A DNA stretch of 64,000 bases from Candidatus Buchananbacteria bacterium (lineage in GTDB: Bacteria > Patescibacteriota > Patescibacteriia > Buchananbacterales > UBA6539), in contig JABWCG010000002.1 in assembly GCA_013359225.1 (NCBI GenBank), forward strand, positions 113,470 through 177,469, read 5' to 3'. Below the pieces are notes generated by a model that saw only the letters and a list, made by a program, of their open reading frames with translations, was not told where the DNA came from and ran no database searches. The translations under genes were made by a program, and so were the position numbers. Positions 7,413-36,900 of the stretch are shown piece after piece. The first letter of the stretch is position 1; the number at the start of each line of letters is the position of its first letter.

Positions 7413-8279
7413 ATGAATAAAACTCAAGGATTAGGCAAAGGATTAAGTTCGCTTATTCCTCCCAAAATTGATCGAACCATCATGCCGTCAGGTTCGGAAG
7501 TGTTGCCGGGCGAAGAAACTGTTGTTCAGATGCCGATTGAAAAAGTTAAAGCTAACCCAATGCAGCCGCGGAGTAATTTTGACCATGAGGGCCTAGAAGA
7601 CCTAACTAATTCAATCCGAGAACACGGTATTTTGCAACCGCTAATTTTGACGCACGGCGATAATGGTACCTACCAGGTAATTGCCGGTGAGCGTCGTTTG
7701 CGCGCTTCACAAATTTTGGGGCTTAAAACTGTTCCATCAATTGTCCGTGATATTAAGGAACAACAGAAGCTGGAGCTGGCGTTGGTTGAAAATCTACAGC
7801 GTCGGGATTTAAACCCGATTGAAGAGGCGGTGGCATATCAACGCCTGATTGATGAGTTTAGTTTAACTCAAGAAGAAGTTGGCAAGCGGGTTGGTAAAAG
7901 CCGTTCAGTCATTACGAACGCATTGCGACTGTTAACACTGCCGTCAGAAATTCAGAAAGCCTTGATTAACAATAAAATAAATTACAGCACAGCCAGGGTT
8001 ATTGTTGGTTTGCCGCCTCAGGAGCGCTTGAAATTTTTTCAGAAGGTATTGCAGCAGGATTTGACGGTCCGGGCTGTTGAAAATCAGGCGCGTCAAGTCA
8101 CCGTGAAACGTCAGGCGCATAAAACTAAAGATCCTAATATCGCTACCCTTGAAGAGCGGATTGAATCATTGTTAGGGACGAAAGTAACAATTAAAAAATC
8201 AGGCGATGGCGGCCAGATTATTATTGACTATTATTCCCCAGAAGAGCTAGAAGGACTTATTGAAAAATTTGGTGATTAG
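7413..8279 (+). CDS. parB: Chromosome partitioning protein ParB/Spo0J
   Basis: It has the ParB box 'IAGERRLRAS' and an HTH. It lies immediately downstream of parA. Confidence 0.9.
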   Translation: MNKTQGLGKGLSSLIPPKIDRTIMPSGSEVLPGEETVVQMPIEKVKANPMQPRSNFDHEGLEDLTNSIREHGILQPLILTHGDNGTYQVIAGERRLRASQILGLKTVPSIVRDIKEQQKLELALVENLQRRDLNPIEEAVAYQRLIDEFSLTQEEVGKRVGKSRSVITNALRLLTLPSEIQKALINNKINYSTARVIVGLPPQERLKFFQKVLQQDLTVRAVENQARQVTVKRQAHKTKDPNIATLEERIESLLGTKVTIKKSGDGGQIIIDYYSPEELEGLIEKFGD

Positions 8280-9802
8280 TAGTTTTGGCTAGCAGACTTA
8301 ATTCTTCCTTTAGCGGCTCCGGTTTTAACAAATTGGAGCCAGTCTCGGCTGGGGCCCCTGCGATTTTTATCGGTGATGATATCAACGACATCACCGTTTT
8401 TTAATTTAGAGTCCAGACTGGCAATTTGATTATTAATTCTAGCACCGGCGCAGTGGTCGCCGATCCAGCTATGAACGTGGTACGCAAAATCAACCGGTGT
8501 CGCGCCTTCGGGCAGATCGATAACGTCACCCTTGGGTGTAAAAACAAAAATCCGGTTTTGGAAAAAATCAATCGTTAAAGATTGTAGGTACACTTCATTG
8601 TCTTGGATTTCTTTTTGCCATTTAACTAAATCTTCAATCCAGGTTAATTTTTTTGGCAACGTGTAGCCAGGGTCGCCGATTTTTTTATTTGTCTGGCGAC
8701 TTTCTTTTTCTTTGTATTGCCAGTGGGCGGCGATACCGTTTTCTGCCTGGTCGTGCATTGCCGGAGTACGAATTTGAAACTCTACAATTTTTCCTTCAGT
8801 ACAAAAGACAGTGGAATGTAGTGATTGATAGCCATTTGGTTTTGGTTGAGCAATATAATCTTTAATCCGGCCCGGCAATGGTTTCCATAATTTATGGATA
8901 ACTCCAAGTGCTTGGTAGCAGTCCTCAACTGTTGGTACAATGATTCGCAGTGCTACTAGGTCGTAAATTTTTGAAACGTCCCCATTGTAATGAGGTTTTT
9001 GTAGTTTAAGATAGAGACTGTAAAGCCGTTTCTGCCGCCCATGGATGGAAGTGGTTTTTATTTTTTGAGCCGCTAATTCTTTTTCAACGATTTTAATCAC
9101 CCGGTTAATGTATGCCATTTTCAGTTCAATTTTTGGCAAGATATCTTTTTTCATCCATTCATATTTTTGTGGGTAAACATAAGGAAAAGATAAATCTTCA
9201 AGTTCACCTTTAATTTGTCCCATACCGAGACGATTGGCGATTGGTGCATATATTTCTAGGCTTTCCTGGGCAATTCTTTTTTGTTTTTCTTTGGGCAGTG
9301 CTTCCAAGCTACGCAAGTTATCTAGGCGATCGGCCATTTTAATGAGAATAATACGAATATCTTGGGCCATTGAAATAAACATCTTTCGTAGATTCTCGGC
9401 ATATTTTTCCATTCCGCGGTATTTAATGATACCAAGCTTACTAATGCCGCCGACTAGTTTGGCAATATCTTCGCCGAAGTTTTTTTCCACTTCAACCAAG
9501 CTGTATGTTGTGTCTTCCGGAACGTCATGGAGCAGAGCGGCAATGACAGTGTCTTGGTCAAGGCCCAGTTTAGCAACGGTTATGGCAGTTCGCAGAGGAT
9601 GATTAATATAGGGCTCTCCCGACTTTCTATTTTGTGTCTTATGAGCTTCTTCGGCAAATTCATAAGCGAGTTTAATCAAGTCAAAATCATAATTGGCGGG
9701 CGCTCGTTTGAGATAAGGGAAAATAGGCACTCGGCTAGTGACTTTATGGTTTTCTTTAAGAATTCGAAATAGTTCTTCAATTGGTAATTTGTTGCTAGTC
9801 AT
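8276..9802 (-). CDS. rel: Small bifunctional (p)ppGpp synthetase/hydrolase of the Rel/SpoT family (HD, synthetase and TGS domains, no ACT domain)
   Basis: It has the HD motif 'HDVPEDT', the RelA_SpoT synthetase region and a TGS domain. I chose the start at [10 protein letters not shown]. Confidence 0.85.
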
Positions 9803-9857
9803 GGCATTTTTTAGTATAATAATTGTAAAGGAATTAGATATAAAAATCAATTTTTCT

Positions 9858-10859
9858 ATGAGTTTACCTTTTTTTAGTTATTCAACATTACCGTTGGTGT
9901 TATTAGTGGTCTTGGTAGCCATTATTTTTTTTATGTGGCGTAAGGGTGGAGCAAGTGGCCCATATAATGCTAGTGGTAATGCAACTCCAACTTTAAATCA
10001 GTATGCTAAAGATTTAACCAAAATGGCCGCCGACGGAAAGCTTGATCCGGTGATTGGTCGCAATGAAGAAATTGAACGCGTGATTCAAGTGTTGAGCCGC
10101 CGGACTAAAAATAATCCTGTCTTAGTCGGAAAGTCCGGCGTCGGCAAAACCGCCATCGCTGAAGGTTTGGCACAAATGATTGCCGGAAAGAAAGTGCCAA
10201 AAATTTTAGAAAATAAGAAAGTGCTCGCCCTAGATCTGACCGGTATTATCGCCGGCACAAAGTATCGGGGAGAATTTGAAAAACGGATTAAACAGATTGC
10301 CGACGAGATTACCGCTGCGAAGCGCAGCATCATTTTATTTATTGATGAGATTCATACTTTGGCGGAAGCCGGTGGGGCTGAGGGAGCAATTGACGCCGAT
10401 GACATCTTAAAGCCGGCCTTAGCGCGTGGTGATCTGCAGGTAATTGGCGCAACCACTGCTGAAGAATACAAAAAATTTATTAAAAAAGATGTGACCCTTG
10501 ATCGACGGTTGCATCCAATTTTAGTTGATGAGCCGACCAAGGAAGAAACCGTTAAAATTTTAGAGGGAATTAAGCGCAAGTATGAGCAGTTTCATAAAGT
10601 GAACATTACCAAAGAAGCAATCTTAGCGGCGGTTCATTTGGCTGAACAGCATATTAAGAATAAATCATTTCCAGATAAAGCAATTGATTTAATGGATGAA
10701 GCGGCGTCGAAGGTCAGCATTGAAAATGTTACTGATGAATCAACTGCTAAAAAAACAACGTCCCAAAAGAGGCTGGCGGATAAAAAATCATGGCCGCAGG
10801 TTGGCGTAGCGGAGGTGCAGGAGGTAATGCAGGAGTGGCAGGAAAATAAATTTTTATAA
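9858..10859 (+). CDS. Membrane-anchored ClpA/ClpB-type AAA+ ATPase with a single D1 module; no N-domain, M-domain or D2
   Basis: There is an N-terminal TM helix ([17 protein letters not shown]). The protein matches ClpB D1 ([40 protein letters not shown]; Walker [11 protein letters not shown]) and ends just after the D1 small domain. Confidence 0.6.
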
Positions 10860-10874
10860 ATTGTTACTATTTTA

Positions 10875-11495
10875 ATGTCTAAGACTAAATCGGCACTATT
10901 AAACACCCTCGGCTTGTTCTTTTTATTTTATGGCGTTTATGCTATTGATTATTCGGTATATCGTGATCATTGGTCGTGGGTTTTTTGGATTTGTTATATC
11001 GGCTTGGTAATTATGGGTGCGGCAATATTATTGCGGAATTCAATGGTAATTATCAGTCAATTATATATTTTAACTATTCCACTATTAATTTGGCTGACTG
11101 ATTTTTTTTCGCGCGTTTTTACCGGACACCATTGGTTTGGAACCACAGATTATTTCTTTGAAGAATTATTATTACCGGCCCGGATTATCTCGCTGGAACA
11201 TTTTTTCCTTTTGCCCTTGGGGTATGTGGCATTTTGGGCTTTGGGAGCAAAAGCTAAGGGGGCGTGGGTCATTAGTATTATTGAGGTGGCAGTCATATAT
11301 TTTATGGTCAGATTATTCACCGACGCTGTCCAAAACGTTAACTGTGTTTTTGAGTCGTGCTTTCCTTCAGTTCCGTCCGACGCGCTTTATCCAATTCGTT
11401 GGTTTGCAATAATTCTAGGGATGATTTTAATTACCTGGTTTTTAAATTTCATGGTACTTTATTTAACTAAAAAAATTAACTATAATAAAAAATAG
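10875..11495 (+). CDS. Hypothetical polytopic membrane protein
   Basis: It has 5-6 predicted TM helices and no recognisable family. Confidence 0.4.
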   Translation: MSKTKSALLNTLGLFFLFYGVYAIDYSVYRDHWSWVFWICYIGLVIMGAAILLRNSMVIISQLYILTIPLLIWLTDFFSRVFTGHHWFGTTDYFFEELLLPARIISLEHFFLLPLGYVAFWALGAKAKGAWVISIIEVAVIYFMVRLFTDAVQNVNCVFESCFPSVPSDALYPIRWFAIILGMILITWFLNFMVLYLTKKINYNKK

Positions 11496-11520
11496 GTTTG
11501 GAAAATAACTAATAAATTTT

Positions 11521-12396
11521 ATGAACCAACAAAACGATTTGCAAACTAAAGTAAAATCTCGGGTAAGCAGCAAAGTGGTCCTGGCGGGTATTGCCATTGC
11601 CACGCTGGTTGGTGTTTCGCTGGTTACTGCCAGTCTGGTAACTCCGGCCGGTACCGGAAATTTTTATGCCGGCAGCGGTGATATCAAACTCCCGCCGCCA
11701 AAGCCGGCTTGTCCGGTGGGAGGTTATGCGGAGAATGGAAAGTATGTTTATATTTGTGAAGAGGACGGTACGGCTGCTCGACATACGTGTGATAAAAGAT
11801 TAGAAGATGCTAATGGTGTTGAGTTGTATCGCTGTTTAGATTCAAGTGGCAATACAGACAATGATCAGGTGTGTTGCTTGGAGGAAGCTCCTACGTGTCC
11901 GGCGAATTATTCCATTTGTGGCAAAGACGCTGGTGCTGTCTGTTGTAGTGCTAATGAAACTTGTGAATCTAAAAAATGGCCACCGGTTGTGGGGGATACA
12001 ATTTATTTTTGTAAACCAAAAACGTGTCCCGATCCGGCGAGGCCAAAATTGTGCACCGGTAGCACCAATAATGCTTGTTGTGCAAGTACCGATAGCTGCG
12101 GCACGAGCGGCATTGGTATTGCATACTGTAAGCCCACAGGCTGCACTGATCCAAACTGTGGTGATATCTGTTGTACTGATAATGAAATTTGTGTGACCAA
12201 AACTGGCACACCTCCAGTTTGTCAGCCAAAAGATCCTTCATCTTGTGATACCGATGGGGTTGATAATGTCCCTGGTAATAATGATGATCAAGAGTATTGT
12301 CAGGGAAGGGGTGAGTATGCCGAAAGAAAACGTTGTTGTCCGGTCCGTACTTGTTTTGTAATGCCTAATGGATATCCGCAATGTAAGACAAATTAA
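11521..12396 (+). CDS. Cysteine-rich secreted or anchored protein with a distinctive N-terminal leader (TM helix followed by TPAGTGNFYAGSG)
   Basis: It has about 40 Cys residues and a CCx5-6C motif repeated five times. The N-terminal 60 residues are shared with the product of 13547..14629. Confidence 0.5.
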   Translation: MNQQNDLQTKVKSRVSSKVVLAGIAIATLVGVSLVTASLVTPAGTGNFYAGSGDIKLPPPKPACPVGGYAENGKYVYICEEDGTAARHTCDKRLEDANGVELYRCLDSSGNTDNDQVCCLEEAPTCPANYSICGKDAGAVCCSANETCESKKWPPVVGDTIYFCKPKTCPDPARPKLCTGSTNNACCASTDSCGTSGIGIAYCKPTGCTDPNCGDICCTDNEICVTKTGTPPVCQPKDPSSCDTDGVDNVPGNNDDQEYCQGRGEYAERKRCCPVRTCFVMPNGYPQCKTN

Positions 12397-12404
12397 ATTT
12401 GTTT

Positions 12405-12450
12405 TAGAAATAGAGCCCGCTAAAGCATAGTGCTTAGCGGGCTCTTTGGT
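12405..12450. terminator. Bidirectional rho-independent terminator between convergent genes
   Basis: There is a perfect hairpin GAGCCCGCTAAAGCA/TGCTTAGCGGGCTC, followed by a T-rich run. Confidence 0.6.
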
Positions 12451-12462
12451 TTTCGGGGGGGG

Positions 12463-13374
12463 TTATTTAAGCAAAGCCCATTTGACAGGCCCTGCAAGCT
12501 CTTTGGCAGTTTGGACAAGAAAGACCTTGTCGCGAATGCTTAGTTCCTGAAGGTTGATCCAGGGAAACAAGTTGACGAACTTTATTCCAAGCTCATCGAG
12601 GTTCTCCTGGGTCCAGGCTTGCTGGTTGAACTGAGTGAGTGCTTCTTGTTGTGGCGGGGTCAAATCGTTGGGAATTGATTCCCAGACTTTGTAGTACTGA
12701 GAAGCTTGGTTGCTGATGATATTGGTGCTGACGCCGATGTCTTGGAGCGCTTGGAGGCGCTTGATGATGTCGGCGGTGTTGCCGACTGTCAGCCAGGTGA
12801 ACCCGGCACCAGAAATTTCGGGGCCGTTTTCCCATTGCTTCTCTCCGTACTTGACGGAGGTGTAGTAGCAACGAACTGCCGTCCAGCGCCCATCCTGATT
12901 GACTTCAGTAACCGTTGACAGCTCGTAGTCGCCAAGTTTCGGCGAGTTGAACGCGATGTTCATGCCGTTAAGGTCGCACCAGGCCACCCAGACCGTTTCC
13001 GTTGTCGAAGCTTTGACTTTCTCTTGTTCGTTGGCGATGACAACTGCCAACGGCTTAGGTTCCGGGTAAATCGGATATGCGTCCGAGCATTCCCCGGGTT
13101 TCGGATTCGGGTTGCCGCGACCGCAACGGATCTTGGATTCACGGTGCGAGTCCAGCAGGAGTGCGGTACCCCAGCCAAGCAGTTCAACGGCTTGCGGGTT
13201 TTTGGTTTCAGCCTTTGTGACAGCGGCTGTTAACTGTTTGACGAACATTTCGTCGGAGATGTTGGTTGGGCGCTCGGCAGCAAAGCTTGCCAAGCATAGC
13301 GTGCAGGTGAAACCTGCAAGAACTAACGTCTTCATCTTAAATATCCTTCCCCATGGAAAGTGGCTTGTAACCAT
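12463..13374 (-). CDS. Secreted hypothetical protein encoded by a compositionally atypical, GC-rich gene
   Basis: It has the signal peptide MKTLVLAGFTCTLCLASFAA. A sampled ~76-nt stretch of the gene is about 62% GC, against about 40% for the neighbouring sequence. I recognise no domain. Confidence 0.5.
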   Translation of the reverse strand: MVTSHFPWGRIFKMKTLVLAGFTCTLCLASFAAERPTNISDEMFVKQLTAAVTKAETKNPQAVELLGWGTALLLDSHRESKIRCGRGNPNPKPGECSDAYPIYPEPKPLAVVIANEQEKVKASTTETVWVAWCDLNGMNIAFNSPKLGDYELSTVTEVNQDGRWTAVRCYYTSVKYGEKQWENGPEISGAGFTWLTVGNTADIIKRLQALQDIGVSTNIISNQASQYYKVWESIPNDLTPPQQEALTQFNQQAWTQENLDELGIKFVNLFPWINLQELSIRDKVFLVQTAKELAGPVKWALLK

Positions 13375-13477
13375 AATTCACAACAGGTGAATAATGGTTT
13401 TCAAGACCGTTGTAGGGTACATTTTCTATAGTATATATTATACTATATATTCATTTTTTTGTCAATAGTAAGACAAT

Positions 13478-13516
13478 ATAATTAAAAACACCTGCTAGTT
13501 ATAGCAAGTGTTTTTA
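13478..13516. terminator. Hairpin terminator downstream of the 13547..14629 gene
   Basis: ACACCTGCTAGTTATAGCAAGTGTTTTT lies in an AT-rich spacer. Confidence 0.4.
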
Positions 13517-13546
13517 AACGACTAAAATTTATTGTTGATTATATTA

Positions 13547-14629
13547 TTATAAATCGCCGCAACTAGAAAAATTACAATTAATGTAATAGCAGGCCTTGTT
13601 GTCCGGATTGTTGGTGCCGCGAGTTTTTTCATCAACGTGAACTAACTGGGTTGAGCCGGCTTGGCCACAAATATTTTTTTCGGTGACATTGCATTCGCGT
13701 AAGACATTTAGGCCGGAAGCGGCACCCCTAATTTTTGTTTCGGCGGTAGCAGCGTCGCCAGTGCAGCCGCTACCGGCTGAAGTGGCAGCGCCGGCACAAG
13801 CGATATCTGCAGCTTGTCCGGTGTCGTGCGCGCTTTTGTTTTCATTGTTCCAATCGCTGAAGGGGACAAATTTATCGTCTTCATCACCGCGGTAACTGCT
13901 GTTGAGTACGCAGCTAGCTGGCAGTGATTCGCACTTGGGTGGTGCGCCGTACATTTTGCTGTACATTTTTGCAACCTTTCTTAAGAAGGTGTGAACGCCG
14001 GTAACATCTTTACCGCCGATACCAACCGTGTAAAGCTTTCGCGCTGGATCAGCAGAAGTGTTGGCATTGTTATCGGTTGCTGCGCCGTCATAATTTCCGG
14101 CGCTGTAAACAGGGCAGGCGCAATCAATGTGGACTGCAATCATGAACTTAAATTGTTTTTCCATATCAGTTTGGCTGATGTTGCCGTCGTTTAGCGCATC
14201 AATCAATCCGGCGCGTAGACTAATGACATCACTTAAGGCGGAGCTTTTTTCAATATCAGTGGCATTACAATCGCAAGAGCTTTCATCTCGTTCGCCTTGT
14301 CCGGCAATGTCTGGGCAAAATGCATACCAATTAGTGTTAGGATCGTTGTCAGTTGCTCGAGCTTTGCAATTGTCTCTGGTAGTATGATCGCCATTATCGC
14401 CAAATAATCCTAACCCCGTAACGCACCAACCAGAAACGGGGATTGGGATATTACTGAGATTAATGTTGCCGCTGCCGGCGTAAAAATTACCAACTCCTCC
14501 GGGAGTTAAAAGAGAAGCAGTCACCAGAGAAGCGGCGGCAATGATTATGATTATTACTGAGGTAATAACAACCCTATTATTAACTTTAGTTGTTGAAGTT
14601 ACCTTTAGTTTTGGTTTTTTGGAAATCAT
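13547..14629 (-). CDS. Cysteine-rich secreted or anchored protein; a paralogous leader (TM helix followed by TPGGVGNFYAGSG) with a different Cys-rich body
   Basis: Its N-terminus '...SLVTASLLTPGGVGNFYAGSGNINL' nearly matches that of 11521..12396. The body is Cys/Asp/Asn-rich. Confidence 0.5.
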   Translation of the reverse strand: MISKKPKLKVTSTTKVNNRVVITSVIIIIIAAASLVTASLLTPGGVGNFYAGSGNINLSNIPIPVSGWCVTGLGLFGDNGDHTTRDNCKARATDNDPNTNWYAFCPDIAGQGERDESSCDCNATDIEKSSALSDVISLRAGLIDALNDGNISQTDMEKQFKFMIAVHIDCACPVYSAGNYDGAATDNNANTSADPARKLYTVGIGGKDVTGVHTFLRKVAKMYSKMYGAPPKCESLPASCVLNSSYRGDEDDKFVPFSDWNNENKSAHDTGQAADIACAGAATSAGSGCTGDAATAETKIRGAASGLNVLRECNVTEKNICGQAGSTQLVHVDEKTRGTNNPDNKACYYINCNFSSCGDL

Positions 14630-14689
14630 ACATATTTCCTTAATTTGTTAATACTGTTTTAAGTATATCATAATCTTGACAAATTTAAA

Positions 14690-15140
14690 AAAGTATGCTA
14701 AGGTGTCTTTGTTGATGCTGGGGAAACCCTGCAAACTTGGAAAAATACCTTGTGGCTTTGCTCAAGGTATTTTTCTTTTTGTGATAATTTTTTGACAATT
14801 TTCTTTTTTTAAGCTAAATACTACTTGTATCTTTCTTCCTGGTCTTTGGAGCAATCCTTGGCCGGGAGGATTTGCGGATACGCATTTGCCCCACTGGGCG
14901 TGCGGAAGTCAACGTAAGCGACCGGGATTTTCAGGTCGTCGAAACTTCCACATCACTCATGCGGACGGGCAACCCGCTCGGAAGAAAATCGGCCCATCGG
15001 CGGCAGCATTAACTGGCTCAAATTCGGTTAACGTTGCCGCCACTATTTATTATCGGTTGCCAGATTCATTCCATTTTGTTATGATTTGTTTGCGGCTTGA
15101 AAGAAGCACCCTAGCATCAACAAAGTTTCGGGGTTTAACT
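14690..15140 (+). ncRNA. Candidate structured non-coding region, closed by a ~17-bp long-range helix and containing several strong hairpins
   Basis: 14706-14722 (CTTTGTTGATGCTGGGG) is complementary to 15110-15126 (CCCTAGCATCAACAAAG). Internal hairpins include GGCGGCAGC...GTTGCCGCC and a GNRA-loop stem (UGCUGGGGAAACCCUGCA). Its GC content is higher than the AT-rich flanks, and there is no credible ORF. Confidence 0.25.
14739..14781 (+). terminator. Intrinsic-terminator-like hairpin on the plus strand
   Basis: GAAAAATACCTTG-TGGCTTTGCT-CAAGGTATTTTTC is followed by TTTTTGTG. No plus-strand protein gene lies upstream, so it may end a small RNA. Confidence 0.3.
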
Positions 15141-15436
15141 TTCTTTCAGCCGCTTTTGTTTTTACTTTTTATTGAAGCGGGGGATTGACAAAATTATTTA
15201 GGCATGCTATACTGTATTTAGATAGATAAGATAGGTTTCTAAGCAAAGCACCTATCTTTTTAAATTAGCCCCAAGATAAACCGCGGGCGAGAAAATAAAA
15301 ACAAAAACAAGTAAATTTCCGACTTTGGCTGCGTTTGATGCAAGCACTGTTTTTAACTCGGTCGTTATCAGTCGGATTTTTTTGTACCTTAAAAAATTAA
15401 ATAGTTTTTAAAAAACTAAAAAATAAAAACAAAAAT

Positions 15437-15577
15437 ATGAATGCTCAAGAACTGTCTCAGGCACAGGATATGGATTTTGACATCACCCGTACGTTCGCGG
15501 TGCTGTCGGCGACGCTGATCTTGCCAGTCTATTTGGCCCTGTCGGTCGTCTCATATTCTATGGCCGCAATCTTATGA
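15437..15577 (+). CDS. 46-aa hydrophobic micro-protein (small ORF), GC-rich
   Basis: It runs from ATG to TGA with one TM helix (MNAQELSQAQDMDFDITRTFAVLSATLILPVYLALSVVSYSMAAIL). It is below the cutoff of the ORF track, and a strong terminator follows it. Confidence 0.25.
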   Translation: MNAQELSQAQDMDFDITRTFAVLSATLILPVYLALSVVSYSMAAIL

Positions 15578-15599
15578 CATAATAATTTTGTTTAGGATG

Positions 15600-15635
15600 C
15601 AAAAAATCCCGCGTTTGTTAGCGGGATTTTTTGCG
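15600..15635. terminator. Bidirectional terminator shared by topA (minus strand) and the small ORF (plus strand)
   Basis: AAAAAATCCCGC-GTTTGTTA-GCGGGATTTTTTG. Confidence 0.6.
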
Positions 15636-15642
15636 TTTGTTT

Positions 15643-17868
15643 TTATCGTTTGTATTTACATTCGCGACTGCTACACTTGATTGAATCTTTTGGTCCATGG
15701 ACTAGAATTGAACCGCAGTCTGGGCATTTTTCTGGCTCACTTTGTCCTTCTTCAATATAAGGTTTGCCCCAGAGCGCGTTTTTACAATCAGGGTACTGAT
15801 CACAGGCGTAGAAGAATCCGCGACGCGACCGTTTACCGACAATTTTACCTTTGCCGCAAGCAGGACAAGTGCCGAACGTTTGGGCCGCTTCTTTTTTGAT
15901 GTATTTACATTTTGGATAGTTTGAACAGCCGACAAATTCGCCGTATCTTCCTTTTCGCTTTACTAACGGATGTTCACATTCCGGACATTTTTCGCCGGTT
16001 TCAACTGGTCCTTGCGGTTCGCCGGTTTCACCATCAAGCGGCTTGGTATTTTTACATTCCGGATATCCGGTGCAGGCTAAAAATTTTCCGTAGCGGCCGA
16101 CTTTAATAACCATTGGTTTGCCACACTTATCACATACCTCGTCGGATGCTTGTTCGGTGAGTTCTTTTTTGGTCAGCTCGCTGTCTTTTTTGTCTAGGTT
16201 TTCTTTGAACGGTTCCCAGAAATTTTTAATAACCGGCTGCCATTCTTTTTTACCTTCCGCCACTTCGTCCAAATCATCTTCCATGTGGGCGGTAAACTGG
16301 TAGTCAACAATTTTAGGGAAGTGTTCGACGAGTAAGTCATTAACCAGAAATGCCATTTCAGTCGGCTTTAATTTTTTTTCTTCCTTTTCAACATAGCCGC
16401 GCTCTTGCACAGTTGAAATAGTTGGAGCGTATGTTGACGGTCGGCCAATGCCGTATTCTTCCAATGCCTTAACCAAGGCTGCTTCCGTATAGCGCGCAGG
16501 TGGTTGGGTAAAATGTTGTAACGGCTTTAGTTCAACAAGGTTCACTGTTTGATTTTCGGAGATATCAGGCAAGATGTTTTCTTTGGTACTGGTTGGATAA
16601 ATTTTTAGAAAGCCGTCGAACTTGATAATTGAACCGGTTGAACGAAAGGTGTAGGGAGTTTTTTGGGCTTTGATGTCGACAGTAGTGTTGTCCATAACGG
16701 CCTCGGCCATCTGACTACTAATCGCGCGTTGCCAGATAAGTTGGTAAAGTTTAAATTGGCGGTCATTGAGATATGGTCGAACGGACGCTGGATCATTTTT
16801 AGCCAAAGTCGGTCTAATGGCTTCGTGAGCTTCCTGGGCTAATTTTGATTTTGCAGAATATTTCTTAATTCCGGCGTGGTACTGCTTGCCAAGCTGAGTA
16901 GTAATATATTCAGCAGCTTCGTCTAAAAATTTCGTTGCTAGATTCAGTGAGTCGGTTCTCATGTAGGTAATCAAACCAACTGAGCCTTCTGATCCAAGTT
17001 CAATACCTTCATAGAGCTGTTGCGCTAGCATCATAGTCTGTTTGGCGGAAAAACCCAGCCGTGAGTTGGCAGCCTGTTGTAAGGTAGAGGTAGTAAACGG
17101 TGGCAGCGCTTTTTTCTTGGTTTGCTTTTTTTCAACCTTTTCAATGACATAGGTGGCCTGTTCTAAATCTTTTAGGATCTTATTGGCTTGCTCCTCATTA
17201 CTGATTTCTAATTTATCAATAACCTTGTCGTCAATCTTATTAAGTTTTGATTCAAAGTTTTGATTATTGGCATTAAAAATGCTTTCAATGCTCCAGTATT
17301 CTTGGGCGTTGAAAGCCTGAATTTCTCGTTCCCGTTCGACGATGAGCCGGACCGCGACTGACTGAACTCGGCCGGCTGACAATCCGCGAGCAACTTTTTT
17401 CCATAAAAATGGGGAAAGTTGATAGCCGACCAGTCGGTCCAAAACGCGCCGGGCTTGTTGGGCGTCAACCAGGTGCAGATCAAGCTCGCGCGGATTTTTT
17501 AGCGCCTCTTTGATTGCGTCTTCGGTGATTTCATGAAAAACGATTCGTTTAATTTTATTTTTTGGGGTTTTAAAAATATTGACCAGGTGCCAAGAGATCG
17601 CTTCACCTTCGCGGTCTTCGTCGGTGGCGAAGTAAATATTTTGGGCTTTGTCGGCTAACTTTTTTAATTCAGTGGCTCGTTTTTTTGATTTAACCGGAAT
17701 GACGTACTGCGGGTCAAAATTATTTTCAATATCAACGCCAAGCTTGCTTTTTGGTAAATCTCGAATATGACCAAAAGAGGATTCGATTTTATAATCGGAT
17801 CCCAAAAATTTTGAAATTGTTTTTGCTTTGGTTGGCGATTCGACAATCACCAAATTTTTGATAGCCAT
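15643..17868 (-). CDS. topA: DNA topoisomerase I with C-terminal zinc-ribbon repeats
   Basis: It has a TOPRIM N-terminus (LVIVESPTKAKTI), the type IA core and four C-terminal C4 Zn ribbons. Confidence 0.9.
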   Translation of the reverse strand: MAIKNLVIVESPTKAKTISKFLGSDYKIESSFGHIRDLPKSKLGVDIENNFDPQYVIPVKSKKRATELKKLADKAQNIYFATDEDREGEAISWHLVNIFKTPKNKIKRIVFHEITEDAIKEALKNPRELDLHLVDAQQARRVLDRLVGYQLSPFLWKKVARGLSAGRVQSVAVRLIVEREREIQAFNAQEYWSIESIFNANNQNFESKLNKIDDKVIDKLEISNEEQANKILKDLEQATYVIEKVEKKQTKKKALPPFTTSTLQQAANSRLGFSAKQTMMLAQQLYEGIELGSEGSVGLITYMRTDSLNLATKFLDEAAEYITTQLGKQYHAGIKKYSAKSKLAQEAHEAIRPTLAKNDPASVRPYLNDRQFKLYQLIWQRAISSQMAEAVMDNTTVDIKAQKTPYTFRSTGSIIKFDGFLKIYPTSTKENILPDISENQTVNLVELKPLQHFTQPPARYTEAALVKALEEYGIGRPSTYAPTISTVQERGYVEKEEKKLKPTEMAFLVNDLLVEHFPKIVDYQFTAHMEDDLDEVAEGKKEWQPVIKNFWEPFKENLDKKDSELTKKELTEQASDEVCDKCGKPMVIKVGRYGKFLACTGYPECKNTKPLDGETGEPQGPVETGEKCPECEHPLVKRKGRYGEFVGCSNYPKCKYIKKEAAQTFGTCPACGKGKIVGKRSRRGFFYACDQYPDCKNALWGKPYIEEGQSEPEKCPDCGSILVHGPKDSIKCSSRECKYKR

Positions 17869-30954: not shown

Positions 30955-33900
30955 ATGATCCCGAAAAAATCAAAAATAAAAAAATTAATCTTACCAATCG
31001 TATTTGGTTTGGTTCTTGGCAGCTTTTTAGTTGGTAGTTCAGTTTTGGCGTTAGAAACCGGTCTTGGATACGGCACATTCTCCGGTTTGGGCACCCAGGA
31101 TCTGCGGGTATCGGTCATGAATGTCGTTCGAGCGATACTTGGATTTTTGGGAGTGTTAGCCATCGTGATTATTTTCTACGGCGGCTTTATTTGGATGACC
31201 GCTGGTGGTAATGCGGACCGGATTGCAACGGCTAAAAAGATTTTAACCAACGCTGTAATTGGGTTAGTCATTATCTTTACTTCGTTTGCCATCACTAGTT
31301 TTGTCATTAATCAGCTGATTAATGCGACTGGTGCTGGCGGTGGTGGTATTACTCCGGGTAGTTGTGATGAACCTTCGGATGTTGGTGCAGTGAATGGCTG
31401 TTATGTTTGTACCGATTTTGGCAGTAACTACGGTTGGCAGGTTGATTGCAGCATTAACGGTTGTTGTCCGGGTCCTGCGCAATGCGGCGTGGTAAGCATT
31501 ACACCATCGTCGCCACCAAATCAGCCGATGAACGCGGTGGTGCGAGTTCGGTTTAATCTGCCCACAATTACCGGGGTTGATGAAATCCAGGTTATTGATA
31601 CGACGACCGGAAATCCGGTGGCCGTTAACCGAACGGTTGTTGGCAACGTGGTTGAGATTAGACCCACCGCTTTTTGCGCCGCGCCACAAGATGCTTTGAA
31701 TTGTTTTCCGGCAAACACCACCTTTAACATTGCCATGAATTCCGGATCAATTCAGTGCGGCGGTCAGAACTTGGTGTGTGGTGGTTTTCCGGACCCCTGT
31801 CAGGGCAGTTTTACCACAGGGGATTTTGTAGACATCGCCGGTCCGACGGTTGAGCTGGTTGATCGCCAGATTTGTCAGGGCACAACTAACGAATTGCGGG
31901 CGTTGGTCAATGACGATTATGGTATTGATAACGTTCAATTTTTTGATACAACATACGGTGTTTTGATTAGTACTGATACTAATGTCAGCGTACCACCGGA
32001 AGGTTTTGCTACTGGTAATTGGGACACTTCAACATACGCAATCAATGAGTTTGTGACCGTGGAGGCGCGAGCGTCTGATTATGATAGTCATGTTGCGACT
32101 GATCAGTTGCAATTTACCATTCGCGCCGGTCATTGCTGTAACGCGGTGCAAGATGGCGATGAAACCGGCTTGAATTGTGGTGGTAATGATTGTGAAGCGT
32201 GTAATCCGGTTATTGAGTGGGTGTCGCCGTTAAACGGCGAACAGGGTAACTTGATAACGGTTCATGGCCGTCATTTTGGCGATATCCCCGGAACAGTGAC
32301 TTTTTTGGGCGCACCAAATGACGGTGGTGCCGATAATCAGGATGGACTCAATCCGGCTTCAATTAACCCTCAGTGCAGTAACTATTGGACCGATACGGAA
32401 ATTGTCACTGTTGTTCCTGATGCTCAGGACGGACCAATTATGGTCCGGGCGAACAATGGTACGGTTGACACCACTAATGAGTTGCCGGGCAATACGATTG
32501 CCGATTTTGATCGTAACGATGTTGAGCGCCCCGGTATTTGTACGGTTGTGCCATCCAGTGGCGAGCCCGGTGATGCGGTTGTGATTCATGGTCTGCGCCT
32601 TGATGCTGGCAGTGAAGTATATTTCAGTTCGGTGTTAGCCGGCGGTACCCCGGTTGCTGATGGTTTAATGGTAACTGGCGCCACGGTGCCGAATCTGGAT
32701 CCGGCTCAGGTTGGTCTGCGGGTTAAAAATCAAACCCAGTTTAGTAACCCTAAAACTTTTTCGGTTGGCGACGCCAACGCTCCCGGCCAATTTCAGTGCA
32801 GCAGCGATCAGTTGACGTGTAGTCCGGATCAGTCAAAATGTACGCCGGACAAATTCTGTAATAGTTCTTGTAACTGCGAACCGCGTCAGACCTGTGATAC
32901 TAACACCGGCACACCCAGTTGTGAACCGAGTCAGGGTTTGTGTGATCCTGGGTGGTTTTGTTATAACCCGTTGCCCGATGGAACCCATCAGCCAGATCCA
33001 AACAAGCTTGCTTGTCACTGCTATCAAGCCCAGTTTTGTGACGATCCGACCTTAGCCGCTGATGTTCAAAATCCGGCCTGTCACCCTAATGATGGAGCAT
33101 GTCCGGATAATTATACCTGTGACCCTAATAGTAATTGTACTTGCCAGCCTGTCAGTTCGATTGGTGACGATTCAGCTTACGGCTGGTTTTTCCAGTCGGG
33201 GATTAAGCCGGGATCGTGTAGCAATGAAGCGGGTATTTGTGATCCAAATAGCGCGTTATGTAATAACGGCGAGACATGCAATCCAACGACTTGTAATTGT
33301 GAACCAACCACTCAATTTGCTTGTAGTAGTGACCCTAACGTTTGTAGCCCCGATCCTGATTTGTGTGAAACGGGAACTTTTTGTAATCAAACTTGTCAGT
33401 GTGAAACTCTGGTTCCTTGTGATGCCGATCCAAACAGTCCCAGTTGCGAACCCAGTGCCTGTCCACAGAGTTATTTCTGTTACAGCGCTTCGGTCGGTGA
33501 CCCGGGGTATGATGCGAAAAAATTAGATTGTTATTGTTATCCGGGCATTTTGTGCGACGGAGATATTAGCACGCCGGTTTGTGATCCGGATAACGATTTT
33601 TGTCCAACCGATTATGAATGTAATCCAAACAGCTGTTTTTGTGAGGCTCAGGTAAAGGTTTCAGACAGTTCGACGTATACATGGTTTTTCAATACGACAT
33701 CGTTTGGTCCGCGGGTAGTTGAGAGTTGTAACCGATCAAACACTTGTGACATTGACAGCTATTCCAGTCCGTCACCATATAATGTTTCCGGCACCAGAGC
33801 GGGTGGTTATACGGTGAGTGGTGCTCGACCTGACGACGGTGCGATTCCGGTTGATTCGATTATTACGGCAATGTTTACTACCGAGATGGTTGAAAATTCC

Positions 33901-36900
33901 ATCAACGAAACATCGGTAATCGTCTTGCGATGTAATGAGGCGAGTCAGCCGTTTAATCCGACTAGTTGTGGTGCCCAGCAAATTATTGACGATAACGGCA
34001 TAGACGTTCATGGCTGTGATTATCTTGGTGAGGCGGTAACGTGTTTTGATTTTGAACCTTCGGCCTTGCTAACTAAGAATTATTGGTACCAGGTCACGTT
34101 AAATACGAGTCAAATTTTTGGCACCAATGGTGTCAATTTAATTGGTAACAGTATTGATAATAATTACCGCTGGGTCTTTAAGACGCGTGACAGTGATGAA
34201 CTTAGCCGCGTTGCCTGTGTTTATGTTGAACCGACATATCAAACAGCATACAACTTAGGAGCTGAACATGACTGGAATGCCTATGTGTCACCGGAAGATT
34301 TTGTGTGTGTTTTGATGAATCCGGATCGATCATGCACTTGGGATTGGACAACTTCCGACGGTCGGGCCACGGTGATTGACCAAAACGGCAATGAAGCAAC
34401 AACACAAGCCTTGGCAGAAACACTGCCTGATCCGCCGGTTGACGTGATCGCGAGCTGTACCTTTAGTGACGGCCAGAAAGATGGTGAAGGTAAGCTGACA
34501 ATTGATTTAACCTCGCCATATGTTATTGATAAGTTTCCTGATTGTGGTACGGCGTGTTTGAATGCCAGAATTGGTGCGACGTTCAGTCGGGCGATGGATG
34601 CGGTGAGTGTGACTGACGCAATGACTTTGTATATCTGCTATAACAATCCAAATTGTGAGATTGGTCCCGCCAATGAAGTTACGAGCTTTAGTAAGCCAAC
34701 TGCTCCAGCGCCGGATGAAGCACCAAACACTTTTGTTGGTGACATGCCGTGCTTTGACGTTAATGATGATGGAAAATATGATTATTGTTTGCTGCCCGAT
34801 ACGTATTACCGCGTAGTTATCAACAATACGGCAGTCAGCGCCAATGACAATAAGCCGTTGGCAGGGTTGAATTTTGACGATCCGACGCTTGGTGGTACCG
34901 GCGACCTTGATTCGTATTCTTGGATTTTCAAGACCCAGGCTGATGCCGGTCTTTGTCTGCCGGATCGTATTGATGTTTTCCCACAAGACGAAGTAACACC
35001 GGTTGATACTACTATTAATTATGCCTCGCGTCCCCGCACTGCCGGCGATGCCTGCGATCCGGAATTCGGCCAGCGGTTAAATCCGTATATTTGGAGCTGG
35101 GATTATGATACTAATTTAGTCTCTCGCCAGTTTGATAATCCGTTTTGTAGTGGTTACGAAGTAGCAAACCTTTTGAGTACCGCGCCGCAAAATTATTGTA
35201 CTGAGCGCTTGCCGGGTAGCTTGCGCCAGTCATGCGGCAATAATGTAATTGAAATTGGCGAATCGTGTGACGATGGTAATCTGGTTAATGGTGATGGCTG
35301 TTCGAATTCTTGTTTGCATGAAGGGACAGTGACGCCGACCTGCGGCGATGGCAAAATTGGCGCCGGTGAGGAGTGTGAAACTCCCGGATCAAATTATTGT
35401 GGTGCGGACTGTTTGTGGGTTGGTAATACTGATTATGATTTGGAAGTGTGTGGCAATGGCATTGTTGAGCTTTCTGAAATGTGTGAATATCCAAACACTC
35501 CTGGGTGTGGGGCAACCTGCTTGTTGAGCGGTACTACTGGGGCAGCGATTTGTGGCAACGGCGTAATTGATCGGGGAGAAGAGTGTGATGAAGCCGAGCG
35601 GTTGAATGGTGATGCTCCGTCAAGCGGTGATTATAACGGCGACGGTATCAGTTGTGGCCCGACTTGTTTGATTGAAAATCGTGGTATTGGCGTCTGTCGC
35701 TCAGTTGCCACTAACAAGTTTGATTTTACACAAAACGGTGGCAGCTGTAACACTGGATATGTAGCGGTGCCACTTAATACTGCTACTGGCAACAGTAATG
35801 TTGGTTCGGTTTGCGGCAACCGGATTACCGAGCTTGGTGAACAGTGTGATCTTGGCGGCCGGTGTAGTGATAATAATAAACCTTGTACAGTTAGTAATCT
35901 TTCTAATTGCGCGAATTCGGCGACAGCGACCTGCGAGCCGCGTGATACGTATTGTTTTGACCCAGGCAACGCGACCGATGGTCAAACTTGTCCGACGCCT
36001 GGTTCGGCGTGCGGCACTAGCGGTGTGTGTATTGCCAATACTTGTACTGTTGAGTGTTTAAATGCCGGTTATCCGAGCGGATTTTATTCTGACAATATCA
36101 GTCCATATCAGATTGCTGCAGCCACCAAAGACGGTGAAACATATATCCAGTCATGGATTGGTGGCTATTCGCCGGTGGATACTGGGCCGATGGGCGAGGG
36201 GCATTTGTTGGTTGGTAATGGCGGCGGTAATCAGTTTGTGATCGTTGAACGCTGGCCTGATTGCGGTAGTGCATGTTTGAACGCCGACATTGGCGGACGC
36301 TTCAGTAAGTCGGCAGATCCGAATACGGTTAATGATTTGCAGGCAATTGATTTAGGTGCTGACCGAATTTTCCTCTACGAATGTGGCTTAGACTATAGTT
36401 GTGCAATTGATAGCCTTGAACCGATTGAGGTGAGTGTTGATTCCTATATTGAAGAATATGTTAATGATGCTTTTCGTATCAACCTGCCGCTTTTCTATAA
36501 TTTGATTGATCATGACAACAATCCGTCCACGCCAATGGTGAACGCCTTGTTGCCGAATACTAATTATCGTGTCGTGGTTCGTAATACGGTAACCAGCGCC
36601 GAAGGCTTGGCTTTGACTGGCTTAAATTTTGACGATCCTTATTACGATTACCAAAATCCCGACACTGGCAGCCGTCTTGATTCTCATTCTTGGGTCTTTA
36701 GAACACAAGACACCAGCGAGATTTGCAGTCTGGACAGCGTAAATGTTAATCCGGATGATTATTACTCGGAATCAGATGCCAGTGTGAGGTATAGCTCGGA
36801 GCCACGCAGTGAGCCTGACGTATGTGATCCGCGTTACGGCCAGCGGTTAAATCCGTTTTACTACGATTGGAATTGGGATGATGAAGAGGTGACTGGAAAT

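Follow-up and report, generated by a model that had tools for sequence, protein, structure and literature searches.

A GC-rich gene for a predicted exoprotein of Candidatus Buchananbacteria as a compositional outlier conserved among Patescibacteria

We have analysed a 64,000-nt stretch of Candidatus Buchananbacteria contig JABWCG010000002.1 (hereafter the window) and, within it, the gene for a predicted secreted protein at 12463..13335 on the minus strand (hereafter the target), which an earlier sequence-only reading had taken for a recent import from a higher-GC donor. The target is best classed as a compositional outlier whose outlier status is itself a conserved trait. We favour, with moderate confidence, the view that it is an old, conserved and probably very highly expressed exoprotein unit, in which GC-richness has been maintained in place and is not the scar of a recent import. 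The finding is out of the ordinary in bringing together a rare family, a new predicted fold, a codon anomaly that persists, a leader hairpin with covariation and a gene link between Patescibacteria and Hydrogenedentes. Throughout, L numbers label loci or contigs and P numbers label members of the protein family.

The gene had been put at about 60% GC against about 40% for its flanks; that it is an outlier stands, whereas the size of the contrast does not. The window averages 44.3% GC and the target 52.4%; scored against 912-nt segments this is z=2.4, the window maximum jointly with part of a giant open reading frame (ORF) at 44-46 kb. Just three 100-nt windows rise to 0.60. The excess ends abruptly at both ends of the coding sequence (CDS); of the two spacers that had been called AT-rich, the upstream one is so (27% GC) and the downstream one is not (48% GC). 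GC at first and second codon positions (GC1 and GC2) is normal (z 0.6-0.7), the anomaly lying in third positions (GC3), where the target has 0.628 against 0.419±0.037 in 44 other ORFs of the window (z=5.7). Tetranucleotide distance is likewise atypical (z=2.8, rank 8 of 632 windows). The giant ORF (5756 aa, 30955-48225, plus strand) resembles the target in its 44-46 kb part in being about 52% GC and tetranucleotide-deviant; there GC2 (0.50) is raised and not GC3, probably through amino-acid composition or repeats.

The anomaly is not specific to this genome. Besides the window, eight Patescibacterial contigs drawn from four archives (ENA, JGI, Logan and NCBI), namely L005, L006, L008, L090, L091/92, L100, L096/97 and L093-95, carry a family member, with protein identities from 64% down to 23-27%; one of these, the P0023 cluster, bears the NCBI label Buchananbacteria. 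Among the sources of the copies are JGI 3300025150 and 3300014208. In 9/9 Patescibacterial loci the GC3 of the member exceeds that of every flanking gene compared, by a margin of 0.04 to about 0.4: 0.63 versus 0.42 in the window, 0.64 versus 0.34-0.40 in L005, 0.67 versus 0.20-0.32 in L006, 0.61 versus 0.25 in L090, 0.65 versus 0.47-0.49 in L091, 0.66 versus 0.42-0.47 in L100, 0.60 versus 0.34-0.40 in L096, 0.58 versus 0.22-0.46 in L093 and, in the longest-branch copy, L008, which has the lowest GC3 of all, 0.45 versus 0.31-0.41. The excess holds even in members that are about 25% identical. The sequence-only reading had named homologues restricted to close relatives of similar GC bias as evidence against import; this was found in part, the eight other Patescibacterial members having a higher GC3 than their flanks. 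Each Patescibacterial member adjoins genes of a cys360 family, a cys291 family, mem206 and/or an AAA-relA-topA group, to which we return below.

The surroundings of the CDS are conserved with it. As listed, the ORF spans 12463..13374 (minus strand, 303 aa). Since every homologue in the family alignment begins at an internal MK(T/G/R)L methionine, equivalent to the ATG at 13335 (MKTLV...), since this ATG is preceded at a spacing of 8 nt by the Shine-Dalgarno sequence GGGGAAGGA (13344..13352, minus strand), and since the ATG at 13374 falls within a conserved RNA hairpin, we place the target at 12463-13335, with 290 aa and a TAA stop at 12463-12465. A promoter scan assigns it a sigma-70-type promoter of its own, TTGACA-17-TATAAT (13437..13465, minus strand), which matches the consensus at 12/12 positions; an AT-rich consensus promoter is kept in 6/6 aligned Patescibacterial loci, and so, in the six, is a purine-rich block at the Shine-Dalgarno position. 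The leader of about 95 nt carries a structured element (13361..13408, minus strand; RNAfold of seven loci with covariation), the core of which is a 12-bp hairpin (13370-13398) with an invariant CUGU(U/C) loop and an outer GGUCU/AGCC stem, about 20-30 nt from the predicted 5' end. The hairpin is present 5' of the homologous genes in the window, L005, L006, L008, L090, L091 and the distant L093; across these seven loci 86.9% of cells are paired and 10/12 pairs are compensatory, while 0/500 shuffles did as well and slid controls gave 32-46%. Against Rfam 15 each leader match scored below half the gathering score of its family, and in the window tRNAs alone reach threshold. We suggest that the hairpin is a candidate new cis-acting RNA, mRNA-stabilising or regulatory. 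As a regulon motif it was rejected, no second intergenic copy being present in the window.

The two bracketing hairpins that had been described are indeed there. One (12412..12445), terminator-like and with 12-nt arms that are 100% complementary, lies between the target and the convergent cys291 and possibly serves both; the other (13482..13517, minus strand), with a 16-bp stem that is 94% complementary, is the predicted terminator of the upstream cys360 and separates that gene from the target promoter. A conserved C-rich tract precedes the 12412-12445 hairpin on the target mRNA, and the hairpin recurs as a homologue in L005 and L091 and, as a variant, in L006 and L090. Six loci thus agree in promoter, in leader and in the hairpin region downstream with its C-rich tract; the distant L093 makes a seventh as regards promoter and leader hairpin, which argues that the unit has been inherited within the phylum. 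Taken together, the predicted elements (promoter, Shine-Dalgarno sequence and leader hairpin) make the target an independent transcription unit with strong expression signals. Considering that the native flanks are kept and that the GC3 excess recurs in all nine loci, we regard GC-richness as a conserved property of the gene. As a separate observation, an inverted repeat brackets the CDS (12455-12471 and 13336-13352; 17 nt, 82% complementary), in which the Shine-Dalgarno region is complementary to the C-rich tract just after the stop, a tract kept in 5/6 loci; pairing of the two mRNA ends was not borne out, since duplex energies were no better than those of shuffles in the window (z=0.09) and were inconsistent across loci.

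These data make it very improbable that the target is a recent, unameliorated import from a higher-GC donor, possibly the host. The atypical GC3 and tetranucleotide rank given above, the absence of the gene from the closest representatives (L009 and L012-L014) and the existence of homologues in Hydrogenedentes that are 63-66% identical would fit such an import. The best identity outside the Patescibacteria is, however, 66%, with a proportion of synonymous differences (pS) of 0.65-0.69 to the Hydrogenedentes copies; syntenic copies with promoter, leader and hairpin region occur in five other contigs, in addition to the promoter and leader kept in L093; the target borders in the window yielded no integrase ORF, no tRNA and no flanking direct repeat of more than 14 nt; and distant members show the same bias. 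Moreover, pS between the target and every other copy is 0.53-0.87, near saturation, so that its divergence is old. The codon-usage and tetranucleotide checks that had been proposed do return an atypical gene (relative synonymous codon usage, RSCU, correlates with that of its own genome at r=0.04), and the compositional part of the earlier claim thereby survives; the dating is not supported, given the GC3 excess shared by all nine loci, the native flanks, the near-saturated pS and the position of the Hydrogenedentes copies described next. It is hardly credible that the gene is an artefact, whether of chimeric assembly or of a GC-rich patch that happens to form an ORF: the compositional jump itself is all that would suggest it, whereas gene and context recur in independent NCBI, ENA, JGI and Logan assemblies, the proportion of nonsynonymous differences (pN) in the family is far below pS, and the family gives a well-conserved alignment and a confident fold prediction.

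The closest homologues outside the Patescibacteria, 63-66% identical to the window copy over the core domain, are those of Hydrogenedentes, represented by one named metagenome-assembled genome (MAG) and three syntenic contigs (L001, L002, L007 and L089 in all). Copies of the Hydrogenedentes type stem from SRR27370448, SRR27370449, SRR27370452, SRR24881069, SRR14117728 and GCA_019637335.1. Their GC3 of 0.67-0.74 matches their genome, which, taken alone, suggests a Hydrogenedentes-like donor. The four sequences form one clade with 100% support, and this clade is nested within the Patescibacterial sequences (neighbour-joining bootstrap values of 78% and 89% at the two nodes that enclose it); the rest of the enclosing group, like the successive outgroups P0012, P0003/P0005, P0016 and P0014, is Patescibacterial wherever the context is known. 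The Hydrogenedentes gene lies in a cassette of a helix-turn-helix gene, CarboxypepD_reg, a Big_2 or unannotated protein, the target homologue, in some cases a CDP-OH-P-transferase, and a large serine recombinase, the gene for which runs into the 3' end of a comM-like gene that is truncated and encodes 352 aa (ChlI+Mg_chelatase; seen in L001 1-12470, L002, L007 and L089). The upstream cargo varies, with Qat in two contigs and DUF87/TrwB/PD-(D/E)XK in another, and the whole may well be an island inserted in comM. No similarity to the Patescibacterial leader was seen in the Hydrogenedentes upstream regions. Since the clade is nested, since its context is that of an island, and since the family is deeper in Patescibacteria and keeps its synteny there, transfer most probably ran from Patescibacteria to Hydrogenedentes. 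A link to a high-GC lineage, which had been anticipated, is therefore upheld, with the opposite polarity: in place of a recipient nested at high identity within its donor lineage, it is the high-GC copies that are nested. At the level of sequence this is a cross-phylum gene link between Patescibacteria and Hydrogenedentes; in the literature we found one taxonomy review naming both Buchananbacteria and Hydrogenedentes and nothing else connecting them.

Within the Patescibacteria, inheritance has apparently not been strictly vertical. The target is present in L005 (topA 87% identical to that of the window), L006, L008, L090 and L091. Window and L005, at 87% topA identity, have target cores that are 64% identical, and the L005 allele is 81-83% identical to L006-type alleles. 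Since gene and host trees disagree, some exchange of the target among Patescibacteria is likely. In L006 the upstream neighbour is unrelated to cys360, and an apparent tRNA 3' end (…GGTTCGAGTCC…CACCA, read by eye at about 860-905) lies some 200 nt upstream of the target unit; from this context we suggest that the unit has moved at least once within the phylum. According to a horizontal gene transfer (HGT) survey (PMC12455944), Patescibacteria exchange genes mostly among themselves and also with other phyla. It is formally conceivable, if rather improbable in our estimation, that exchange of this kind also explains the composition, the relA-topA interval being a recombination hot spot at which this fast-evolving gene is replaced time and again by alleles of other strains, while GC-biased gene conversion, or recurring input from a GC-rich pool, keeps GC3 high. 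The tree conflict, in which the L005 allele is similar to those of genomes with lower GC3 (L006), speaks for this, as do the different histories of the core and C-terminal extension of the protein (alignments and identities) and the varying content of the interval, in which L009 holds another GC-rich exoprotein gene (GC3 0.68). The neighbours cys360 and cys291, however, evolve equally fast and have normal GC3; the excess stops sharply at the CDS ends; the enrichment is for C and not for G+C; and the flanks of a Hydrogenedentes donor share no homology that could guide replacement.

The codon pattern itself is informative. C occupies 39% of third positions in the target against 21% in host genes, at two-fold sites C/(C+T) is 0.82 against about 0.46 in the same-strand (minus) genes, and arginine is encoded exclusively by CGY, while GTG, GCG and CGG, which are heavily used in Hydrogenedentes, are avoided. 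The GC3 excess is therefore mainly one of C-ending codons, C-specific rather than G+C. Across the window there is a strong strand asymmetry at third positions: C/(C+T) is 0.36-0.60 in minus-strand and 0.13-0.42 in plus-strand genes, and G/(A+G) is 0.13-0.23 in minus-strand genes, apart from one at 0.37, and 0.21-0.47 in plus-strand genes, in agreement with a cumulative GC skew that rises steadily over the profiled 10-16 kb; codon-outlier calls need correcting for it. This asymmetry accounts for part of the C-richness of the target, which still lies far beyond the range of minus-strand genes. An antisense ORF as the cause of GC-richness was considered and rejected: long ones exist in L005, L006 and L100, but stops break the frame in the window. 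Synonymous changes private to either of two sister lineages, L005 and L006, number 15 GC-to-AT and 16 AT-to-GC, where about 80% GC-to-AT would be expected of copies relaxing to host GC3 (binomial P about 6e-5); these two copies show no AT-ward drift.

These findings together show the target to be a genuine Buchananbacteria-type gene, a unit of its own and old in Patescibacteria; we suggest that its C-ending codon bias is a conserved property that is kept in place. The likeliest cause would be selection on codon usage or on the mRNA, tied to an exoprotein that is abundant and very highly expressed; alternatively, the mRNA may be under selection of another kind, or gene conversion may be biased. 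The weakest step is the proposal that the protein, outside the cell, serves the neighbouring envelope module as a binding protein or partner, where it may modulate or neutralize the adjacent LAS-peptidase-like wall hydrolase (cys360). A partner or inhibitor role of this kind would also account for an orphan copy on the defence-type island of Hydrogenedentes.

A number of points weigh against this interpretation. By classical logic a GC3-rich gene in an AT-rich genome is read as foreign. RSCU of the target correlates with that of Hydrogenedentes genes at r=0.60 and with that of its own genome at r=0.04, and private synonymous changes on the window lineage are mostly GC-to-AT (8:2 and 11:1), counts which fit either some relaxation from a higher GC3 or a long-branch parsimony bias. 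The gene is missing between topA and relA in the close species representatives L009, L012, L013 and L014. The trees were built by neighbour-joining from some 185 columns, and the nodes that decide the matter are moderately supported; for roughly half of the family a host taxon is lacking, and the deep-branching P0020, with DUF1156 and SNF2/NOV_C genes beside it, belongs to a non-Patescibacterial genome of 57% GC. As regards the cause, little translational selection is to be expected where genomes are reduced and growth is slow, and the window and the loci examined contain no ribosomal-protein or tuf (EF-Tu) genes that could serve as a reference set for it. As regards function, which is the weakest part, the proposal is drawn from gene neighbourhood and from a motif in a neighbour with an E=0.08 match, and target and cys360 would not be co-transcribed, the terminator at 13482-13517 and a separate promoter lying between them.

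Several of these points would be accommodated by a single, ancient acquisition from a GC-rich bacterium, Hydrogenedentes-like or other, by an ancestor of these Buchananbacteria, followed by gain of the native promoter and leader, vertical descent and partial amelioration. We regard this as unlikely, yet as deserving serious consideration, given that every Patescibacterial copy exceeds its flanks in GC3, that the correlation with Hydrogenedentes codon usage and the mostly GC-to-AT changes on the window lineage point the same way, that four-fold and purine-ending sites of the target are intermediate between Hydrogenedentes and same-strand host genes, that L008, on the longest branch, is also lowest in GC3 (0.45), and that a deep member sits in a 57% GC genome. 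On the other hand, GC3 stays at 0.58-0.67 regardless of a host GC3 of 0.2-0.49, even at about 25% identity; the L005 and L006 changes are balanced (15:16); at four-fold sites four copies have C at 0.44-0.54, no lower than the 0.42 of Hydrogenedentes, whereas their G is well below the Hydrogenedentes level; and Hydrogenedentes is nested inside the Patescibacterial sequences, not outside them. We thus retain an old unit with composition maintained in place as the preferred reading.

The protein is predicted to be Sec-exported and of the signal peptidase I (SPase I) type. Its signal peptide, read from the sequence (13276..13335, minus strand; aa 1-20, MKTLVLAGFTCTLCLASFAA), is laid out as MK-TLVLAGFTCTLCL-ASFA before AE, with a likely SPase I site after SFA in the context MKTLVLAGFTCTLCLASFA followed by AERP; no lipobox directly before a Cys occurs in the target N-terminus, and a comparable hydrophobic N-terminus is found in nearly all 30 family members. 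The signal peptide, as read from the sequence, is in keeping with the earlier claim, and the lack of a recognisable domain, also claimed before, is confirmed: searches of the target against Pfam, NCBIfam, PADLOC, PHROGs and PDB sequences gave nothing above threshold. The conserved core (12718..13275, minus strand; aa 21-206) is modelled by AlphaFold2 with 30 sequences as an alpha/beta domain (pLDDT 93, pTM 0.87; aa 21-215 were submitted, and residues beyond about 206 are of low confidence), a model that replaces a first run with 13 sequences (pLDDT 59). In the prediction an N-terminal helix packs on a multi-stranded sheet within about 185 aa. The core conserves a disulfide loop, C71-GRGNPNPKPGE-C83 (CGRGNPNPKPGEC), a W-x-A-W-x-D...G...N...E block and several aromatic residues; since few polar residues are invariant across the family alignment, it resembles a binding module more than an enzyme. 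Foldseek of the core against PDB and BFVD found no match (best E=0.08 and 0.07, respectively; TM-score at most 0.27). The C-terminal helical extension (12466..12717, minus strand; aa 207-290, about 85 aa, a low-confidence structure prediction) is limited to the long forms, namely the window protein, P0002, P0003, P0005 and P0016.

The target family is tiny: a set of 5.8 billion clusters yielded 13 homologues, and one of 1.84 billion representatives yielded 19. A scan of genome contigs with the family alignment found no relative, nor did a scan of viral contigs, and a metagenome scan added one locus, L100; the 30-sequence alignment is too divergent for pattern scans. Membership of Pfam DUF6777 (PF20568) was rejected at 17.4-17.5 bits (E=0.004) against a gathering threshold of 27; the weak match is seen in 7/30 members (best E=0.0035), lies over the disulfide-loop residues 48-83 and covers about 34 of 163 profile positions.

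The target lies, as had been noted, between two Cys-rich genes with a shared leader. The upstream one, cys360 (13547..14629, minus strand), encodes a membrane-anchored Cys-rich exoprotein and is 100% identical to NCBI HUU49_03785, from a 188.5-kb contig of a Candidatus Buchananbacteria MAG; its family has eight members in 5.8 billion clusters. In the homologue alignment its C-terminal part carries an invariant H-x2-G-x-A-x-D ... E ... H-x-D pattern (H268, G271, A273, D275, E312, H331 and D333). LAS/M15 peptidoglycan peptidases have an S-x-H-x-x-G-x-A-x-D ... H-x-D zinc site. Pfam gives a weak match to Peptidase_M15_4 (E=0.08) and a profile search against PDB found nothing; by its motif cys360 resembles a LAS/M15 peptidase and is a putative wall hydrolase. 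A gene of this family adjoins the target in the window, L005, L008, L091, L100 and L093, with convergent orientation in the last two, and does not in L006, L090 and L096. The convergent neighbour, cys291 (11521..12396, plus strand), encodes a Cys-rich exoprotein by its ORF translation and has homologues next to the target in L005, L006 and L090. Both proteins share the N-terminal anchor/leader ...SLVTASL(V/L)TP.G.GNFYAGSG (11521-11700 and 14450-14629), which is also found in the L005 homologue and, more divergent, in L008. Next in the same conserved module is mem206 (10875..11495, plus strand). Its product, a polytopic membrane protein in which the motif N(V/I)(N/S)C-x4-C is conserved, has relatives at L006 2718-3338, L014 13525-14154 and L093 2775-3635 and might aid disulfide formation in the Cys-rich exoproteins.

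All of these genes occupy a variable interval (8276..17868) between relA (8276-9850, minus strand) and topA (15643-17868, minus strand), the latter 72-81% identical to Patescibacteria and Candidatus Buchananbacteria MAGs. In most Patescibacteria sampled (tblastn, 80 topA loci) the two genes are adjacent; in the window the gap of about 5.8 kb holds an AAA+ protein, mem206, cys291, the target, cys360 and a conserved spacer. The L014 interval has cys268, mem209 and AAA and no target, and that of L096 a distant target-family member with a LamG protein. In L009, the closest species representative (topA 81%), the interval holds a different GC-rich gene (12767-14218, minus strand), with GC3 of 0.68 against 0.46-0.48 in its flanks and thus another compositional outlier at this hot spot; its exoprotein product of 483 aa has GEGEGE linkers and PASTA, Ig and Flg_new_2 domains. 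The cys360-topA spacer (14630-15642) is largely conserved with L005 and contains a small conserved ORF for a hydrophobic 46-aa product (15437-15577, plus strand), near-consensus promoter-like sites (15185-15213 and 15057-15085, plus strand) and an 18-bp terminator hairpin (15595-15638, plus strand).

As it stands, the target is a counter-example to the practice of reading a GC island as recent HGT, with a GC3 of about 0.6-0.67 amid genes of 0.2-0.49, and it would be mislabelled if HGT in Patescibacterial MAGs were called from GC. What holds C-ending codons in place while the genome around them is reduced and AT-rich merits explanation. The predicted fold, which has no match in PDB or among viral structures, and the covarying leader hairpin add two features that lack annotation to the surface and secretome toolkit of Patescibacteria. 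To our knowledge, the hosts of almost all Patescibacteria are unknown. The sole close outside members of the family being those of Hydrogenedentes, a concrete and testable symbiont-host pairing suggests itself, along with a hint as to which bacteria these symbionts meet. More speculatively, and with little confidence on our part, the target may provide self-protection, or a partner, within a wall-attacking module of Buchananbacteria that would comprise the Cys-rich LAS-peptidase-like exoprotein, the membrane protein and the target exoprotein; Hydrogenedentes would have captured a copy of the target from their epibiont as an orphan immunity gene on the comM-inserted defence island. Were this so, the case would be one of symbiont-to-host transfer that names Hydrogenedentes as the host or target lineage, and the family would be a new fold family of hydrolase-neutralizing proteins with C-rich codons kept by selection.

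Three kinds of known system invite comparison. Lawrence and Ochman are said to have set out compositionally atypical 'alien' genes within a framework of amelioration. The target resembles such genes in deviating in GC3, codon usage and tetranucleotides and in lying in a variable interval between core genes. It differs from them in that its deviation is common to members in nine Patescibacterial genomes of differing GC, in that its promoter and leader are conserved in seven genomes and the downstream hairpin region in six, with no mobility signature, and in that its high-GC homologues are nested inside the Patescibacterial ones. Given the shared deviation, the native flanks and the nested high-GC homologues, its composition does not mark a recent arrival.

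Further, effector-immunity pairs built on hydrolases offer a partial parallel. Work by Ross and colleagues from 2019 reportedly describes acquired interbacterial defence islands in which orphan immunity genes lie beside recombinases. Like one half of such a pair, the small exported target protein adjoins a putative LAS/M15-like hydrolase in at least six Patescibacterial loci, and, like the genes of acquired islands, the Hydrogenedentes homologue stands without the hydrolase on a recombinase island beside Qat, PD-(D/E)XK and DUF87. The likeness is limited in that the enzymatic nature of cys360 is suggested by a motif and a Pfam match of E=0.08 and the pairing by gene neighbourhood, and in that target and cys360 are predicted not to be co-transcribed, vary in relative orientation and are not always adjacent.

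Finally, genes for abundant surface proteins, such as the Lactobacillus slpA S-layer gene, or aprE of Bacillus with its leader, have strong promoters, stabilizing stem-loops in the 5' untranslated region and strong codon bias. The target protein, at about 30 kDa, is unlike S-layer proteins, the high expression proposed for the gene is read from its sequence, and its hairpin lies about 20-30 nt from the predicted 5' end and not at it. In agreement with genes of this kind, however, the target has a consensus promoter and, in a leader of about 95 nt, a stable and conserved hairpin; its Shine-Dalgarno sequence and its terminator-like hairpin are both strong, its product carries a signal peptide, and NNC and CGY codons are preferred.

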